From an uncultured bacterium (GTDB lineage: Bacteria; Acidobacteriota; HRBIN11; JAKEFK01): a DNA stretch of 64,000 nt. The notes under the pieces were generated by a model, which did not search any database, was not told where the DNA came from, and saw nothing but the letters and a program-made list of their open reading frames with translations. The stretch lies in assembly GCA_963777505.1 (NCBI GenBank), contig CAVZQN010000011.1, forward strand, positions 64,001 to 128,000, written 5' to 3'. Shown in pieces: positions 44,636 through 49,885 of the stretch. The translations under genes and the position numbers were made by a program. Each line of letters begins with the position of its first letter. The stretch's first letter is position 1.

Positions 44636-44880
44636 ATGCAAGAACAACACTAACGAGTAAAGGTCAAATTACACTCCCGAAAGATATCAGGCAGAAGCTT
44701 GAATTGGAGGCGGGCGATCAAATTGATTTTATTATCATGCCTGATGGCGATGTGTTCCTAAGACCTGCAAAATACGACATTCTGAAATTGGAAGGATCGC
44801 TTCAAAGCAAAAAAAGAAAACCGGTTACGATTGAGCAAATGAATGTTGCCGTCCGGGAGAGGATGAAGAAGTTTCGATGA
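44636..44880 (+). CDS. AbrB/MazE/SpoVT-family antitoxin; absent from the ORF track because of a 1-bp shift just after the ATG
   Basis: Hand translation: TTLTSKGQITLPKDIRQKLELEAGDQIDFII...KPVTIEQMNVAVRERMKKFR*. ATGA overlap with the PIN gene. Confidence 0.85.
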
Positions 44881-45265
44881 TAGGGCTGGATACGAATGTC
44901 ATAATCCGGTTTTTAGTTATGGATGATCCCACGCAAGCCAAGAAGGCATCGACACTGGTTCGAACGGCTCTTAAGAATCAAGAGGAATTGTTTATCGATT
45001 CCGTTGTTCTTTGTGAAATGGTTTGGGTACTTGAGGGAGCTATGAATTTGCGAAAGATGAAATCGCGGATGTATTGGAAAAAATAATGACTGAGCTGATC
45101 GCAATACAAGATCGTGATGAAGCCTGGCTGCATTGAATGACTATCGGCAAGGGCGGGCTGACTTTTCGATTATTACATTGGCAGGATCAACAAAAATTCC
45201 GGAGCGATTACACCGTGACTTTTGATCAGGAATTAAAAGAAAGCGACCTTTTTGTTCTGTTATGA
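44877..45265 (+). CDS. vapC: PIN-domain (VapC) toxin with several frameshifts
   Basis: IGLDTNVIIRFL..DD, VLCEMVWVLE, then in shifted frames GRADFFDYYIG...TVTFDQEL...FVLL*. Confidence 0.85.
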
Positions 45266-45809
45266 ACTTTGCGCCTCTGCGGTTAAGGAATAGAACGGCA
45301 CCGCACCCGTTTTTTCTCAGGGTCCACACAAAAACACCAGCATCGACATCCTCTTTTGTTGGATCCAATACCATAGCAATGTGATGCTTATCATTGAAAT
45401 AATGCTCATCAATAAATTGGTCCGCAGAAGATAAAAACACTCCATAACCAGGATGTGTATGAAACCAACCGACAACTTTTTTGTCAGGAAACTGCGCAGT
45501 TAGATCATCGTGTATTTGTGCTTGCGCCTCATTGTTAAATTCGAATGATGCGCGGCGCGAAACACCTTTACGAGCCGGAATAAAATCATGAATCTCAACA
45601 AACCATCTTCGTGAAGCTCGCGCGATCCGTCCTACAAGCACTCCTCCCAATTCATAGCTTGTATCAGATGATGCATATTCGCGGATTCGATCCAGAGCAT
45701 TTTGGACGATGTAAACGACCAGCAGTTTCATCGGGTATTCGCGATCCACTTTTGATGGAAGCCGGCTTCGTTCTGTCTTTTGTTTTATTCGCCGGATCTT
45801 GATTTCCAT
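45141..45809 (-). CDS. JAB/MPN+ (JAMM) metallopeptidase, Rpn11/CSN5-like; real 3' end probably near 45280
   Basis: E53 (YELGGVLVG) and VVGWFHTHPGYGVFLSSAD (H117, H119, S127, D130), AMVLDP. The ORF tail overlaps the opposite-strand VapC, so it is probably an indel artefact. Confidence 0.92.
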   Translation of the reverse strand: MEIKIRRIKQKTERSRLPSKVDREYPMKLLVVYIVQNALDRIREYASSDTSYELGGVLVGRIARASRRWFVEIHDFIPARKGVSRRASFEFNNEAQAQIHDDLTAQFPDKKVVGWFHTHPGYGVFLSSADQFIDEHYFNDKHHIAMVLDPTKEDVDAGVFVWTLRKNGCGAVLFLNRRGAKFITEQKGRFLLIPDQKSRCNRSGIFVDPANVIIEKSARPCR

Positions 45810-46324
45810 TACTTCGCTTCCTTGCTGTCTTTATGAAGAATCTTAATAACCACTTTTCCAGCCTTATCACGAATCGGACGCGAATCGAGAGGAAACATGT
45901 GCAAATTAAAACGTGCCCATTCCGCCGCTTTTTTATCTAATGGCGATTGAAGATTGTATTTAACATAACGTGCCATATCAGCAAGCTCTGATACAAATTC
46001 GGCTAATGACCAGCTTGGCGCCCACTGTCCGCTGTGACAAACAGCTTGTAACTTAATGTTCGGATGAAAGATCGGACTTAACCACGTCACATCTGGCGGT
46101 TGAGATGGATATTGCGCGCCTAATACAATTTGACACTTGTGTTCTTGAATAATCGCTGGCTTTCCCGATCCATCAGACATAATTCCTGGACAAATAAAAC
46201 GGATCTGATATTGATTCGGGGGATTTCCTGATGCCGAAAAATCGATGATCGATGATTCAGTTTTCAGACGCAGCATCTCTTCAAAATCATTTTTCATCCG
46301 GATCTGTCTGCGATTCATTTTCAT
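45809..46324 (-). CDS. Ubiquitin-conjugating enzyme E2 (UBC fold)
   Basis: Helix 1 RRQIRMKNDFEEM, YPSQPPDV.W.SPIFHPNI, catalytic C96, WAPSWSL, YNLQSPLDKKAAEW. Confidence 0.92.
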   Translation of the reverse strand: MKMNRRQIRMKNDFEEMLRLKTESSIIDFSASGNPPNQYQIRFICPGIMSDGSGKPAIIQEHKCQIVLGAQYPSQPPDVTWLSPIFHPNIKLQAVCHSGQWAPSWSLAEFVSELADMARYVKYNLQSPLDKKAAEWARFNLHMFPLDSRPIRDKAGKVVIKILHKDSKEAK

Positions 46325-46369
46325 TTCGTGAAGTAAAACGCCAATTATTTTGTTTGGTGTCTTTATCTT

Positions 46370-46651
46370 TTAGCGGTTGAGTTTTCCGGCAACAAACGTG
46401 GACGTCAACAAAAGTAAATCTCCGTTCTTTGTTGCGTATTCACCAAGTGTTTTGTTTTGCTTTAACTCCTGGCTGGTTCGTTTGTTTGAAAGCTGGTACG
46501 AGATCCGATTACCATCCGGTCCGACAAGAGGAAGCCCAAGTTGTTGCACCAACTGAGGCAACAAATCATCCAGCTTTGCGTCATCCGGCAATTCGACTTC
46601 GTATTCTTGATTTGTATCGGCGCGAACAACTGTAACGGTTATTTGTGACAT
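46370..46651 (-). CDS. Ubiquitin-like (beta-grasp, EsaB/YukD-like) protein
   Basis: ITVTV...YEVELPDD..LDDLL, YQL, L...KTLGEY...NGDLLLL (cf. ubiquitin TLxDY..xxx.L.L). Tail FVAG-KLNR. Confidence 0.88.
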   Translation of the reverse strand: MSQITVTVVRADTNQEYEVELPDDAKLDDLLPQLVQQLGLPLVGPDGNRISYQLSNKRTSQELKQNKTLGEYATKNGDLLLLTSTFVAGKLNR

Positions 46652-46691: not shown

Positions 46692-47828
46692 TTAATCCAA
46701 GACAAAAAATATTCGATCATTTTGAGTCTCAGCACAATAGATATGCTCCGATGGAAATCCCAATTCCCGAAAACTCTTGTTTCCCCAGCTTTCTGTACCT
46801 TCATAGGCAACAGCAATCTGAGGTTTGAAAACGCCTCCGCAATCGCAAAACGCCGAACCATTGTATAAGGATTGCGTTCCTGTAAATTCTTCATTTTTAC
46901 CGCATTGAATACACATTAAAGATGTCAGCAAATTTCGATCAAAGTCCCAGATCAATCGATCGGCATTCCATTCTTGTTTTGCAGCTTGAAGAACAGTTTG
47001 AATAGGATCACTTTGACGCACTCTCAATTGTTTTATTTCCCCAATCGGATCTGCGGATGCATGCAGTCCACAGTCTTCTGAAATTTCCAATGCTATGTCA
47101 AAGAAAACATCGCTTAAACCGTAAAGGCCAAGCCTTTTACCTGCGGGAACCTGCAATCCATGCAACTGCCTGACTCCAATCTGTACCTGAAGTGCTCCAA
47201 TAATGGATGCAATGGTTGGAGCAGTTGGTACATGTTGCTTAATTTCCGGATCCGTACTTTTTAGACATGAGATCCGTTTTTGAAGTTCCGCTCGATCGAC
47301 TCCGCTCAGAGTGCACTCATAACATGCCGTCGCCGGCGGCATAAATACCGAAACGGATCCATTTAGAGTGTCCAGGCCCCCGTCGATGAAAGGTTTTTTC
47401 AGAAAATATGCATATCGATTCATTGCATATCTCGCTTCACGATTGTCCAAACAGCCCAGGATTAAATCCATTTGCGATAAGAATCCGAATCCGAGATCGT
47501 AACGAACATCAATTCTTAACGGAACAAACGATGAATCGGGATTCATTTCAGAGGCACGAGCGGCAAGAACATCCGTTTTCCATTTTCCAACGTCATCGGC
47601 TCTAAAGAGTGCTGAGCGTGTCAGGTTTGTGGTCTCTATGCGGTCAAAGTCGACAATCCAAACTTTGCCAATTCCAAGCAGCGCAAGGTTTTTGACGACT
47701 TCATTTCCAAGAGCTCCAGCACCGACAACCAGAACGCGTGCGTGCTTTAGTTTTTCCTGATCCCACCAGCGAATTAATTTGAGCCGCTGATATCGATCCG
47801 TTTCAGGATCCGTTAGACGCAGCGTCAT
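46692..47828 (-). CDS. E1-like activating enzyme (ThiF/UBA family) with C-terminal extension
   Basis: VLVVGAGALGNEVVKNLAL, DFDRIETTNLTR, CLDNREAR, ACYEC, putative catalytic C188, CGLH, extra CxxC...CxC zinc ribbon. Confidence 0.93.
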   Translation of the reverse strand: MTLRLTDPETDRYQRLKLIRWWDQEKLKHARVLVVGAGALGNEVVKNLALLGIGKVWIVDFDRIETTNLTRSALFRADDVGKWKTDVLAARASEMNPDSSFVPLRIDVRYDLGFGFLSQMDLILGCLDNREARYAMNRYAYFLKKPFIDGGLDTLNGSVSVFMPPATACYECTLSGVDRAELQKRISCLKSTDPEIKQHVPTAPTIASIIGALQVQIGVRQLHGLQVPAGKRLGLYGLSDVFFDIALEISEDCGLHASADPIGEIKQLRVRQSDPIQTVLQAAKQEWNADRLIWDFDRNLLTSLMCIQCGKNEEFTGTQSLYNGSAFCDCGGVFKPQIAVAYEGTESWGNKSFRELGFPSEHIYCAETQNDRIFFVLD

Positions 47829-48631
47829 AGCTGTGATTCTACCTGCTTTCGGACTTCATGTATTTCAGCTTCCATCGCTGAAAAACGTTGCTTAATTTTT
47901 TCCAAAGTAGCAGTTAGCTCATCCTCGCGCATACGAAAGTAGGTGTGATAATCGCGGCAGCATTCGTGCAGATCATGATCAATTTGAAACAGAAAATCGG
48001 AAAAAAGAATTCGGCCTGCAGGATTCCGTTTGTAAAAACTTTCAACAATTCTGTGGCCAATGAGTACAGTCTCAACCCATTTCAAACGCATGGCTGGACT
48101 TTGCAGTAATTTTGATACTGCGCGAACTTCCGATTGCGTAGAAGGAGACAAGAAAAAGGGAAGTGGTGCACCGGATTTAAATAGAGATGGTTTCGGTTTT
48201 CGAGTCAGCTTTTTTTTCTCATCTGGCTTAGTTTGAATCTCTGCCTCAACTTTTTCTGCAAGCAATACTTCCTTCCAATGCTGCAAAATAGAAGGATCGG
48301 TTTGCTCAATCATGGTCCAGGGTAGAGAGTGAAAAGCTTTCAGGTAGTCGTAATCCTTTCTTCCTGTCAGCGCTTGAAGTATGGACGCTACTTCTCCTAG
48401 ACGTCCCTCTGGAATTGAAAGGATCTTCAAATACGCAAGAGTCGGTTTTATCGCGGAAACTTCTCCAAGACACTGAGGGCAGTACCAATGATGTGCATGA
48501 TAACGATTGTGACAACTCTTGCAAGCAAATACTTGTATTTCACGGACTTCAATTGGAGGAGGTTCAACGGGCGATGTGCGGTTTGTAGAACGGCGTTTAA
48601 TGCGGACTTTAATACGATTCAAAAAACTCAT
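47825..48631 (-). CDS. Uncharacterised zinc-ribbon protein with L7/L12-CTD-like middle domain and helical C-terminus
   Basis: CKSC...CPQC. Start trimmed to MSFLNR to avoid overlap with the macrodomain gene. Its stop overlaps the E1 start (ATGA). Confidence 0.75.
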   Translation of the reverse strand: MSFLNRIKVRIKRRSTNRTSPVEPPPIEVREIQVFACKSCHNRYHAHHWYCPQCLGEVSAIKPTLAYLKILSIPEGRLGEVASILQALTGRKDYDYLKAFHSLPWTMIEQTDPSILQHWKEVLLAEKVEAEIQTKPDEKKKLTRKPKPSLFKSGAPLPFFLSPSTQSEVRAVSKLLQSPAMRLKWVETVLIGHRIVESFYKRNPAGRILFSDFLFQIDHDLHECCRDYHTYFRMREDELTATLEKIKQRFSAMEAEIHEVRKQVESQL

Positions 48632-48638
48632 CGATATT

Positions 48639-49175
48639 TTACGAAGCTGCCTTAAAAATCCGCATTGCAGTTGTATTAAAAATTTTCTCGGCGGACTCAT
48701 CGAACAAACAAAATCGTATTTCTTGAAGCTTCGTTTCACCCTCACAATATTGATGAACGACTTGCAGCATAATTTCTGCACAGCGTTCCATAGGATAGCC
48801 GAATATTCCTGTGCTGATTGCTGGAAAACTAATAGTATGAATTGCTTCACTATCGGCTAAACGTAAGCTGTTTGAAGTGGCATTCCGAAGTTTTTCATCT
48901 TCATCCCCTTCGCCCATTCTTGGTCCAACCGCATGAATGATGTAAGGTGCTTTTAAATCTCCTCCGGTGGTTATGGCAGCACTCCCAACAGGAACGAATC
49001 CGACCCTGTCTGATTCATCCTGAATGATTTTACCCCCTTTACGAACAATGGCGGCTGCAACACCTCCGCCATGCTGAAGTTGAGAATTTGCAGCATTAAC
49101 GATGGCTCCAGTGTCTTCTTCAGTGATATCTGCACGCTTTACTATAATTGTAGTATTACCAGCCTGATAATTCAC
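48639..49175 (-). CDS. Macrodomain protein (MacroD/YmdB-like ADP-ribose hydrolase)
   Basis: ADIT, IVNAANSQLQHGGGVAAAI, IHAVGP, FPAISTGIFGYP. Confidence 0.95.
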   Translation of the reverse strand: MNYQAGNTTIIVKRADITEEDTGAIVNAANSQLQHGGGVAAAIVRKGGKIIQDESDRVGFVPVGSAAITTGGDLKAPYIIHAVGPRMGEGDEDEKLRNATSNSLRLADSEAIHTISFPAISTGIFGYPMERCAEIMLQVVHQYCEGETKLQEIRFCLFDESAEKIFNTTAMRIFKAAS

Positions 49176-49195
49176 GAAAAAAAACCACCTTTCCC

Positions 49196-49885
49196 TTATC
49201 CTAACATAACTCTTTTTTTGCTCTTTTGTAGGTCTTTTGGGGCAATAAGTTGATCCAGCCGCAATCGGATCCGTTCAAGAGCCGTAACAGGAGTTTCCTG
49301 CAGATCCAACGATATGGCAGATTCAGGAATTTGAATTTTAGGATGATCGGATGTGCCTTTCTTTTTATTCAGGATAATGAAATTGGCTCCGTTCAGGATT
49401 TGTTCAGCATTATCTTTCCAACGCGATGGTGGAATGTTGTTTGCTGCAACATAAAACATCAGATCGGGTTTGCATATCGATGTAACTGTGCTTCCTTCCA
49501 TGATGGTCAAGGCATTTTTGGGAAGGTGTTCAATGAGATGTTGAAACGCTTCAGCAAGATATGATTTTCTGGAAATGATCCAAACCACTTCCTTTGCGCC
49601 TGCCGCAGCAAGTCGTTGCGTGTTTTTTCCTGATTGCATCAAAACTGCAGGATCGCGAACAATACGGAAGCGATCGGATAAATCGCAAACTGTACATGGT
49701 GCCCCGCGTGGACACGGAGATGGAATATCGGTGGTGGTTGTAAACTTTACCGCATACACGGGAATATTCTGGTCAGCGAAGTATCGGATTAATTGCTCCG
49801 CGAGCAAAGTTTTTCCAGCGCGGCTCGTTGCACCCGCAACGCTGATGATCCGAATGTCTTTGCGATTGTAGAGTTATTAGCTCAT
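49196..49885 (-). CDS. MobB-like P-loop protein; 5' end disrupted
   Basis: Reading upstream of the called ORF in the same frame gives IISVAGATSRAGKTLLAEQ (Walker A). Also AVK, CPRGAPCTVC, GKNTQRLAAAGA, MEG. ATG at 49885 is followed by AGC TAA TAA. Confidence 0.65.

Follow-up and report, generated by a model that had tools for sequence, protein, structure and literature searches.

A variable C-terminal tail on an acidobacterial ubiquitin-like protein and its probable trimming by the neighbouring JAB peptidase

Described systems and the acidobacterial locus

The trimming of a ubiquitin-like protein (Ubl) precursor by a JAB peptidase is already established in two described systems, that of Caldiarchaeum (CsUb and CsRpn11) and the Type II Bil system (BilA and BilC), and no new principle is claimed for the locus described here. 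This locus lies in a 64,000-nucleotide stretch of DNA from an uncultured member of the Acidobacteriota (assembly GCA_963777505.1, contig CAVZQN010000011.1, positions 64,001 to 128,000), which is hereafter called the window and within which all positions are numbered. A gene in the window encodes a Ubl that ends in Ala-Gly followed by the four-residue tail KLNR, and its neighbours encode an activating enzyme (E1), a conjugating enzyme (E2) and a JAB metallopeptidase. We assign a probability of about 0.78 to the reading that this protein is the precursor of a Gly89-ended Ubl, that its tail is without function and is trimmed by the JAB peptidase, and that the Ubl is conjugated by the E1 and E2.

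The propeptide of Caldiarchaeum ubiquitin was noted in PMC3082918. The pro-ubiquitin, with a propeptide of nine amino acids (aa), is described as refractory to its E1 until the Rpn11 homologue cleaves after the terminal GG, and the same enzyme, CsRpn11, is reported to cleave conjugates as well (PMC5654768, PMC6043591). In the account of the Bil system given in PMC10557695, BilC cuts BilA between Gly97 and Ala98, Ala98 prevents ATP from binding in the E1 structure when it has not been cleaved off, and in BilA homologues the glycine is followed by as many as nine residues that are not conserved. According to a prediction of Iyer et al. 2006, the JAB peptidase in operons of this kind has the two tasks of processing the Ubl and removing it. 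Related operons in Actinobacteria, Planctomycetes and Acidobacteria are mentioned by Zuin 2014, citing Burroughs et al. (2011; 2012). A literature search, which did not reach operon catalogues, yielded no experimental work on the Ubl family considered here.

Judged by comparison of sequences, the Ubl system of the window appears to work like the Caldiarchaeum and Bil systems and is a member of neither as these are defined. It displays the traits common to JAB-matured and E1/E2-conjugated Ubl systems, namely a beta-grasp protein with a conserved glycine, a variable extension, a neighbouring peptidase with an intact JAMM motif, and E1 and E2 motifs. With the Caldiarchaeum operon, as described in the published accounts, it shares a single-domain Ubl with a short, non-conserved propeptide (9 aa there, 4 aa here) and the clustering of a single-chain E1, a UQ_con-type E2 and an Rpn11-like JAMM peptidase, which in the case of CsRpn11 both matures and deconjugates. 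However, the Ubl of the window ends in A-G and belongs to the Pfam family YukD, whereas its Caldiarchaeum counterpart ends in G-G and belongs to the ubiquitin family; a RING-type E3 ligase is present there, whereas none was recognised by Pfam here; and the genes of the window are arranged as E1-Ubl-E2-JAB on one strand, in a host of a mesophilic-looking acidobacterial lineage.

In the Type II BilABCD system, represented by the anti-phage BilA and BilC of Ensifer aridi, the published account likewise has the Ubl pre-processed by the JAB peptidase, at a glycine that is universally conserved and preceded by alanine, and has the peptidase cleave conjugates too. On the other hand, the reported Bil gene order is Ubl-E2-DUB-E1 (DUB, deubiquitinase) and the Bil E1 is reported to combine inactive and active adenylation domains with a CYS insertion, whereas the E1 of the window is a 378-aa protein with a single ThiF domain. 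Among the PADLOC Bil models, that of BilA gave an expectation value (E) of 0.015 with no passing stretch, that of BilD gave 1.5e-7 over 111 residues, and the E2 had no match. The Bub systems (6E, or DUF6527) differ in that BubE is described as a DUF6527 protease and in the fusion of Ubl to E2 or of E2 to E1, whereas the corresponding genes here are separate and no Pfam match to DUF6527 was found in the seven operon proteins. The order of the genes and the architecture of the E1 led us to reject membership of Bil, Bub or CBASS (cyclic oligonucleotide-based antiphage signalling system), PADLOC having returned only generic JAB and E1-E2 matches and marginal Bil ones.

Two further groups of proteins are relevant for comparison. 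The eukaryotic precursors of ubiquitin, SUMO and NEDD8 and the fusions of ubiquitin to ribosomal proteins resemble the Ubl of the window in that a C-terminal extension or cargo is removed to expose the terminal glycine, and the ubiquitin-L40 and ubiquitin-S27a fusions parallel the class of cargo fusions found among the relatives of the Ubl. Eukaryotic maturation is mostly carried out by cysteine-protease deubiquitinases, and conservation extends to the eukaryotic tails and cargos, in contrast to the unconstrained tails described here. The YukD and EccD proteins of type VII secretion belong to the same Pfam family as the Ubl (PF08817), and EccD5 Ubl domains occur among its structural matches (ranks 34, 46 and 47 in the Foldseek list). 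YukD-like domains such as that of EccD are permanent parts of larger proteins, and the Ubl domains of YukD and EccD are not known to be conjugated or to have a reactive terminal glycine; the Ubl of the window, in contrast, has an invariant terminal A-G and is accompanied by genes for an E1, an E2, a JAB peptidase, a Macro-domain protein and a zinc-ribbon protein. In a large and more distant YukD-like subfamily whose Ubl part ends in ...LQPEITAG (among P0089-P0209, e.g. P0094, P0097, P0101, P0102 and P0149), a double zinc ribbon of the form CPxCG...CxxCG often follows directly, along with predicted membrane segments; these may be permanent domain fusions like EccD.

The Ala-Gly end and its variable tail

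The Ubl precursor gene (46370..46651, minus strand) is an open reading frame (ORF) of 93 aa, the C-terminus of which reads ...GDLLLLTSTFVAG89-KLNR-stop, exactly as given in the first-pass annotation of the window, a reading of the sequence alone. On the minus strand, Ala88 is encoded at 46388-46390, Gly89 (codon GGA) at 46385-46387 and the tail, K90-R93, at 46373-46384, followed by a TAA stop codon at 46370-46372. The predicted mature Ubl comprises residues 1-89 with the ...TSTFVAG end (46385..46651), where both A-G conservation and DNA similarity end; the four tail residues (46373..46384) constitute the predicted propeptide, and an unconserved spacer, delimited by DNA alignment, separates the Ubl stop codon from the E2 start (46325..46369).

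The beta-grasp fold attributed to the protein in the same annotation is borne out. YukD (PF08817) is the sole significant Pfam family (E 2.8e-12; 47.7 bits, the cut-off being 27). An AlphaFold2 model based on 70 sequences is a beta-grasp in the order strand-strand-helix-strand-strand, with a mean predicted local distance difference test score (pLDDT) of 84.5, which falls to a mean of 46 for residues 91-93 at the end of the tail. The best Foldseek match of this model is Caldiarchaeum ubiquitin (6fno_D, from the complex with its Rpn11 homologue; 1.4e-6), and further matches include SUMO1, ubiquitin variants and BilA (8tyx_A, rank 7), those to SUMO1 and BilA all being within the top 10. A search of the Ubl sequence against solved structures gave no match, ubiquitin included.

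The tail is also found in public sequence data. One 266-nucleotide contig from the public run X3 spans positions 46324-46589 with two synonymous differences and no insertion or deletion, and therefore reproduces the KLNR codons, the stop codon and the spacer; it may come from the sample behind the window's own assembly, so that its independence is not certain. All seven nucleotide differences listed over the Ubl gene in two public contigs are synonymous (7/7). Contigs from X1 reach only the 5' end of the gene, those from X2 and X4 gave no alignment, and among the listed public runs none contained more than 7% (0.07) of the sampled window words and none was derived from RNA.

The conservation of the terminal dipeptide contrasts with the variability of what follows it. 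A homologue search returned 69 proteins at E <= 1.1e-22, one of which is a 53-aa fragment, so that the alignment holds 69 full-length rows (the window and 68 others). A-G occupies the same column in all 69, and the ten residues LLLTSTFVAG are identical in 60 of them, while the sequence after the glycine varies from 0 to 75 aa, is unrelated between rows and shows no conservation, five rows having no tail. In an extended set of 108 rows, which adds 21 genome loci, one viral locus and 17 metagenome loci carrying the motif, 82 unique tails of 0-176 aa are present, again with no conservation; 12 rows stop right after the glycine and 96 are tailed. A profile search of 1.84 billion cluster representatives (50% clusters) gave 690 matches at E <= 0.001 and 139 at E <= 1e-10; among the best 150 of the 690, 140 were new and 116 aligned through the end of the core, and A-G was present in 114 of these 116, the two exceptions having GG and SS. 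On these alignments, the A-G pattern is far beyond chance.

The same boundary is visible in the DNA. The Gly89 codon is the precise point at which DNA similarity between the window and five acidobacterial relatives (L001-L005) stops, to come back only with the ATGAAYCG of the E2 start; the DNA of the tail behaves like intergenic spacer. Within a tree of 105 cores, tail length differs in 7 of 11 groups of sequences with identical 89-aa cores, and one such core carries tails of 29, 43 and 1 residues. Proline is the first tail residue (P1') in none of the 81 unique non-empty tails, where 3.9 would be expected (P about 0.018, not adjusted for relatedness), and its frequency at P2' is ordinary (6/74 tails). 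Proline at P1' blocks deubiquitinases, and its avoidance would fit a need for cleavability.

Proposed maturation by the JAB peptidase and competing explanations

The Ubl gene belongs to a block of seven closely packed minus-strand genes, which encode, in this order, a 203-aa protein, a Macro-domain protein, a zinc-ribbon protein, the E1, the Ubl, the E2 and the JAB peptidase. The E1 (46692..47828, minus strand) has 378 aa and a single ThiF-type adenylation domain (Pfam ThiF, 6.5e-51), the E2 (45809..46324, minus strand) matches UQ_con (1.4e-9), and the conserved part of the JAB/JAMM peptidase, about residues 1-172, is encoded at 45294..45809 (minus strand; Pfam JAB, 3.4e-10). The start of the JAB gene overlaps the E2 stop codon by one base, and its full ORF (45809..45141) encodes 222 aa, to which the residue numbers E53 and H117 named in the first-pass annotation fit. 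The E2 ORF begins with ATGAAAATGAAT (46318-46324); since alignment with relatives starts no earlier than the second ATG (ATGAAYCG), position 46318 is probably where the E2 truly begins. Metagenome-assembled genomes that are labelled Acidobacteriota, Planctomycetota and Myxococcales show the order E1-Ubl-E2-JAB again: by tblastn over 22 genome loci, four of which are cut by contig ends, the E1 was found in 17, the E2 in 20 and the JAB in 16, always in this order, and the E2 adjoins the Ubl in 11 of a further 19 loci. The distance between E1 and Ubl is variable, being 40 bases in the window as compared with 0.8 kb in L001 (L001:4200-5000) and 1.7 kb in L003 (L003:3336-5000, which includes a masked run), while in L004 no E1 lies within 5 kb upstream of the Ubl (L004:1-5000).

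The catalytic motifs of all three enzymes are intact. The JAMM residues E53, H117, H119, S127 and D130 are invariant in 16/16 JAB sequences, and among solved structures the JAB sequence comes closest to yeast Rpn11 (3.3e-9) and to the Rpn11-like protein of Caldiarchaeum (6fjv, 4.8e-9). In the E2, H87-P88-N89 and Cys96 are invariant in 32/32 sequences, and the best solved matches are eukaryotic Ubc13, Rad6 and Ubc12. The E1, whose ThiF domain spans residues 16-227 and whose sequence is best matched, among solved structures, by UBA7 and UBA1 in their active adenylation domains (2.5e-30), retains its GAGALGNE nucleotide-binding motif, D128 and Cys126/169/172/188/253/306/309/328/330 in 26/26 sequences; these cysteines are Cys188, located in a short crossover insertion, and four pairs of zinc cysteines. 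No Bil chain was found among the solved-structure sequence matches of the JAB, E2 or E1.

A complex of JAB residues 27-175 with the Ubl was predicted with scores of 0.81, 0.81 and 0.80, the best of three controls reaching 0.01. The score mark used is reached by 58 of 80 solved complexes and by 2 of 110 mismatched pairs, counts that hold only roughly here because the prediction used its own alignments. The runs share at least 93% of contacts, the partners have a pLDDT of at least 89, and the predicted interface sets JAB residues 53, 117, 119 and 127-130 and the 87-97 strand against Ubl residues 83-91, i.e. at the active site. As homologous complexes have been solved (6fno, 8tyx), the prediction indicates likeness to them and not binding.

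The invariant A-G, the variable tails, the break in DNA similarity at Gly89, the intact JAMM motif and the predicted complex make trimming of the tail by the JAB before E1 adenylation the most likely reading of these sequences, and the wider proposal that Gly89 is the reactive end and that the JAB exposes it is supported by the conserved order E1-Ubl-E2-JAB and by the establishment of this step in the Caldiarchaeum and Type II Bil systems. As proposed, the precursor bearing KLNR would be blocked from adenylation, since the carboxylate of Gly89 sits in a peptide bond, and the adjacent Rpn11-like JAB metallopeptidase would cut between Gly89 and Lys90. The single-domain E1 would adenylate Gly89 and form a thioester via Cys188, the HPN-Cys E2 would accept the Ubl on Cys96 and transfer it to target amines, and the same JAB would probably reverse the conjugates too. 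The tail itself would have no function, its stop codon drifting in an unconstrained spacer ahead of the E2; because the JAB would remove anything after Gly89, the position of the stop codon would be free, which would explain why related genomes range from no tail to one of 18 residues. The first-pass annotation had suggested that the neighbouring JAB removes KLNR to license conjugation and may also deconjugate, and this is well supported by comparison (the A-G end, the JAMM motif, gene order, the model and the precedents), short of demonstration. For this family of eukaryote-like Ubls from Acidobacteriota and Planctomycetota, the predicted mature end can be placed at ...TSTFVAG, with residues 1-89 as the part to express; the family would also constitute an unusually clean natural experiment, in which the presence of a trimming peptidase renders the position of a stop codon neutral.

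Several points weigh against this reading. For this family, we infer cleavage, E1 charging, conjugation and the neutrality of the tail from comparison with other systems. The terminal dipeptide is A-G, as opposed to the G-G preferred by the characterised Rpn11 homologue, and the predicted complex may reflect memorised homologous structures. As A-G also ends the fused LQPEITAG Ubls, and as YukD-like domains of the EccD type are permanent parts of larger proteins, conservation of A-G alone is no proof of a cleavage site; the A-G end is a hallmark of the wider superfamily and may not always mark such a site. The proline statistic at P1' is weak, phylogeny having been ignored. Finally, a single geometric model of tail length, as expected from pure read-through, was rejected (chi-square P 0.001; 74 unique tails) owing to too many long tails; the tails therefore split into short operon tails and long cargo tails, and the surplus is attributed to a separate class of cargo fusions.

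Other explanations of the tail differ in what they make of the same evidence. Among the 31 Ubl copies that adjoin an E2 (those of the window, of L001-L020 and of ten metagenome loci; tails of 0-18 residues), 24 have some tail; in the extended set of rows, no tail begins with proline; moreover, precursor processing can in principle gate conjugation, the full-length Caldiarchaeum pro-ubiquitin being described as inert to E1. The tail could hence be a selected regulatory cap that keeps the Ubl inactive until the JAB is activated, as in the licensing on/off switch put forward in the first-pass annotation. This is unlikely, however, given that the tails have no conserved length, charge or sequence, that unrelated tails occur on identical cores and that tail DNA behaves as intergenic spacer. 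Seven of the 31 copies are tail-less, and six of these keep the JAB, the seventh locus ending just past the E2; in addition, the JAB and Ubl are co-transcribed neighbours, so that separate control of the peptidase is not evident. Since the cap is lost without loss of the peptidase and its sequence is never kept, it looks like a tolerated by-product and is better read as such than as a selected control device, which leaves the idea of a switch weak. The retention of the JAB in tail-less operons further means that maturation is not its only role; its conserved job is likely to be deconjugation, with maturation in addition. It could even be a deconjugase only, the tail being removed by another protease such as a general carboxypeptidase, and exopeptidases could indeed nibble short tails of 1-4 residues. 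Yet they would not halt precisely at Gly89, operon tails are as long as 18 aa, the predicted complex would set Gly89 and Lys90 at the JAMM site, and both characterised homologous JABs are reported to perform maturation themselves, all of which makes removal by another protease quite improbable.

Two further explanations are given very little weight. A role of the Ubl as a YukD-like adaptor that is not conjugated, like those of type VII secretion, with a C-terminus that is never activated and a tail that is irrelevant, is in line with YukD being its only significant Pfam family, with the lack of ubiquitin in the sequence search of solved structures and with the occurrence of YukD-like domains as permanent N-terminal modules of larger proteins, such as EccD. 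Such a role is nevertheless very unlikely, as the Ubl gene lies between those of an E1 and an E2 with invariant catalytic residues and is followed by a JAB gene, the terminal glycine is invariant and the modelled fold comes closest to Ubls that can be conjugated (CsUb, SUMO1, ubiquitin variants and BilA), while a Pfam scan of the seven operon ORFs, the part of the genome that was searched, recovered no secretion-system family. Still less credible is an assembly or sequencing artefact that hides a true stop codon right after Gly89. The genome is metagenome-assembled in 14 contigs and the listed public runs contain at most 7% of the sampled window words, but the X3 contig repeats the tail, stop codon and spacer with no insertion or deletion, tails are the rule in independent assemblies (96/108 rows), and the conclusion on Gly89 is independent of this particular tail.

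Maturation at Gly89 by the JAB would also have consequences for the detection of conjugates. An AG-type remnant that escapes diGly enrichment had been foreseen; the escape is upheld, whereas the nature of the remnant is not, since the last Lys or Arg before the mature C-terminus is K75 and trypsin would leave NGDLLLLTSTFVAG (14 residues) on the target lysine. The authors of the Bil study are reported to have obtained an AG remnant for mass spectrometry only after engineering V95K (PMC10557695). Mass spectrometry is therefore to be planned around the 14-residue tryptic remnant or an engineered lysine.

Cargo fusions, lineage and neighbouring genes

A further set of relatives consists of eight Ubl loci (L021, L024, L025, L026, L028, L029, L038 and L042) in which no E1, E2 or JAB lies within the fetched flanks. 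In all eight, the ORF continues in frame after ...TSTFVAG into unrelated cargo of 61-176 aa (L024:6001-6492; L025:5366-5815 and L026, which are identical over the gene; L028:2855-3505; L029:6001-6498; L038:1424-2218; L042:1-366; L021:2079-2771). L024 is an IMG/VR viral contig, and neighbours of the fusion genes in L025, L024 and L038 match PHROG families, including a Cas4-like exonuclease, phrog_5931 (1.9e-60) and thymidylate synthase. Three of the scanned cargos match PHROGs themselves, namely phrog_3908 (corresponding to Pfam DUF7417, 4.7e-23, for which a text search of the literature gave no paper), phrog_2207 and phrog_4068; no Pfam or PHROG family was found in the remaining scanned cargo tails. 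Among the 15 new representatives nearest to the core (E < 1e-30, within the best 150 of the 690 profile matches), 12 carry 40-205 residues after A-G. A search with the JAB profile, made in the IMG/VR record of L024 (32% complete) and in the L021 genome, found none; as both records are incomplete, this empty result does not show that a JAB is absent.

In a tree built on 89 columns, many forks of which are unresolved, 14 of 15 fusion rows fall in a planctomycete clade, interspersed with operon copies, at least three label changes being needed, and the L038 fusion groups with two operon copies (support 95/88). The Ubl domains of the planctomycete-clade fusions are nearly indistinguishable from the host operon copy and carry cargo of 61-205 aa at ...TSTFVAG. 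Operon copies never have a tail of more than 18 aa, while long cargo is found on the orphan, virus-like copies. This split suggests that the A-G junction could be a processing site used in trans; equally, the fusions could be mimics that interfere with the host system. It may be proposed, tentatively and with considerable doubt, that the 3' end of the Ubl gene is a free landing pad for fusions, because the JAB would erase whatever follows Gly89, and that virus-like elements of the planctomycete clade, which would have no E1, E2 or JAB themselves, exploit it, either by having the host JAB free their cargo on infection or by using a mimic to soak up or jam the host E1, E2 and JAB. If so, phages would have their own equivalent of the fusions and mimics by which eukaryotic viruses draw on ubiquitin, and this would hint that the operon either works against phages or serves them; a literature search by titles and terms gave nothing on point about phage-encoded Ubl decoys, which is not proof of absence. 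The cargo fusions on virus-like contigs offer a lead, open to testing, to what these operons do biologically.

With respect to lineage, the Ubl is single-copy in the window's genome and occurs once in each of the seven genomes examined from the window's family (7/7), these seven also being the sample for the order, and the operon block adjoins the same nuoF-like gene in four relatives. The family-wide single copy and the shared nuoF-like neighbour point to an inherited chromosomal trait and not to a mobile island.

The three genes that precede the E1 gene (47825-49807, minus strand) occur in the same order in L001, L003 and L005 and were not detected in the planctomycete loci. The first of the conserved seven-gene block encodes the 203-aa protein (49196..49807, minus strand), which has no Pfam family and therefore stays without family assignment, with 60-67% identity in these three relatives. 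It is followed by the Macro-domain gene (48639..49175, minus strand; Pfam Macro, 1.2e-37), which lies upstream in L001, L003 and L005 too and whose place beside a Ubl cascade hints at a possible link with ADP-ribosylation. The zinc-ribbon protein (47825..48631, minus strand), the gene of which overlaps the E1 start by four bases, has 268 aa from its likely start, MSFLN, only residues 73-341 of the longer ORF being conserved in the same relatives. It contains one CxxC...CxxC ribbon, matches no RING or other family in Pfam and yields only zinc-ribbon and L7/L12-like leads at Atlas scores of <=0.80; a blastp comparison with the zinc-ribbon cargos found in the LQPEITAG subfamily gave nothing significant (best E 0.7). 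It was considered as a candidate E3 and could also be a target adaptor.

Downstream of the JAB gene, the loci differ. In planctomycete relatives, a gene for a Ser/Thr protein kinase directly follows that of the JAB (L009:6332-7630, L012:6356-7633, L015:6063-7667, L013:6403-8679 and L006:3418-5418), with an N-terminal FHA domain in three loci and TPR repeats in one, whereas there is no such gene in the window. In a search of the genome for proteasome subunits, PF00227 has one match, a 180-aa ORF (G000:C6:123988-124506), with no sign of a 20S alpha/beta pair that would accompany the Rpn11-like JAB. As the same search gives matches in E. coli and B. subtilis, the protein is probably HslV and is no evidence for a 20S proteasome.

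The JAB ORF of the window has a C-terminal extension of about 50 aa (45141..45293, minus strand) that is missing from all 15 aligned orthologues (15/15). On the opposite strand, this extension coincides with the 3' part of a vapC gene of the PIN family (44877-45290, plus strand), which is frameshifted and has internal stops and the first 69 aa of which match only positions 3-47 of the 120 in the PIN profile. A small ORF upstream of vapC (44704-44880) resembles a partner antitoxin, with no Pfam match. The original JAB stop codon was probably replaced when a toxin-antitoxin pair, since decayed, inserted between the genes for the JAB and nuoF.

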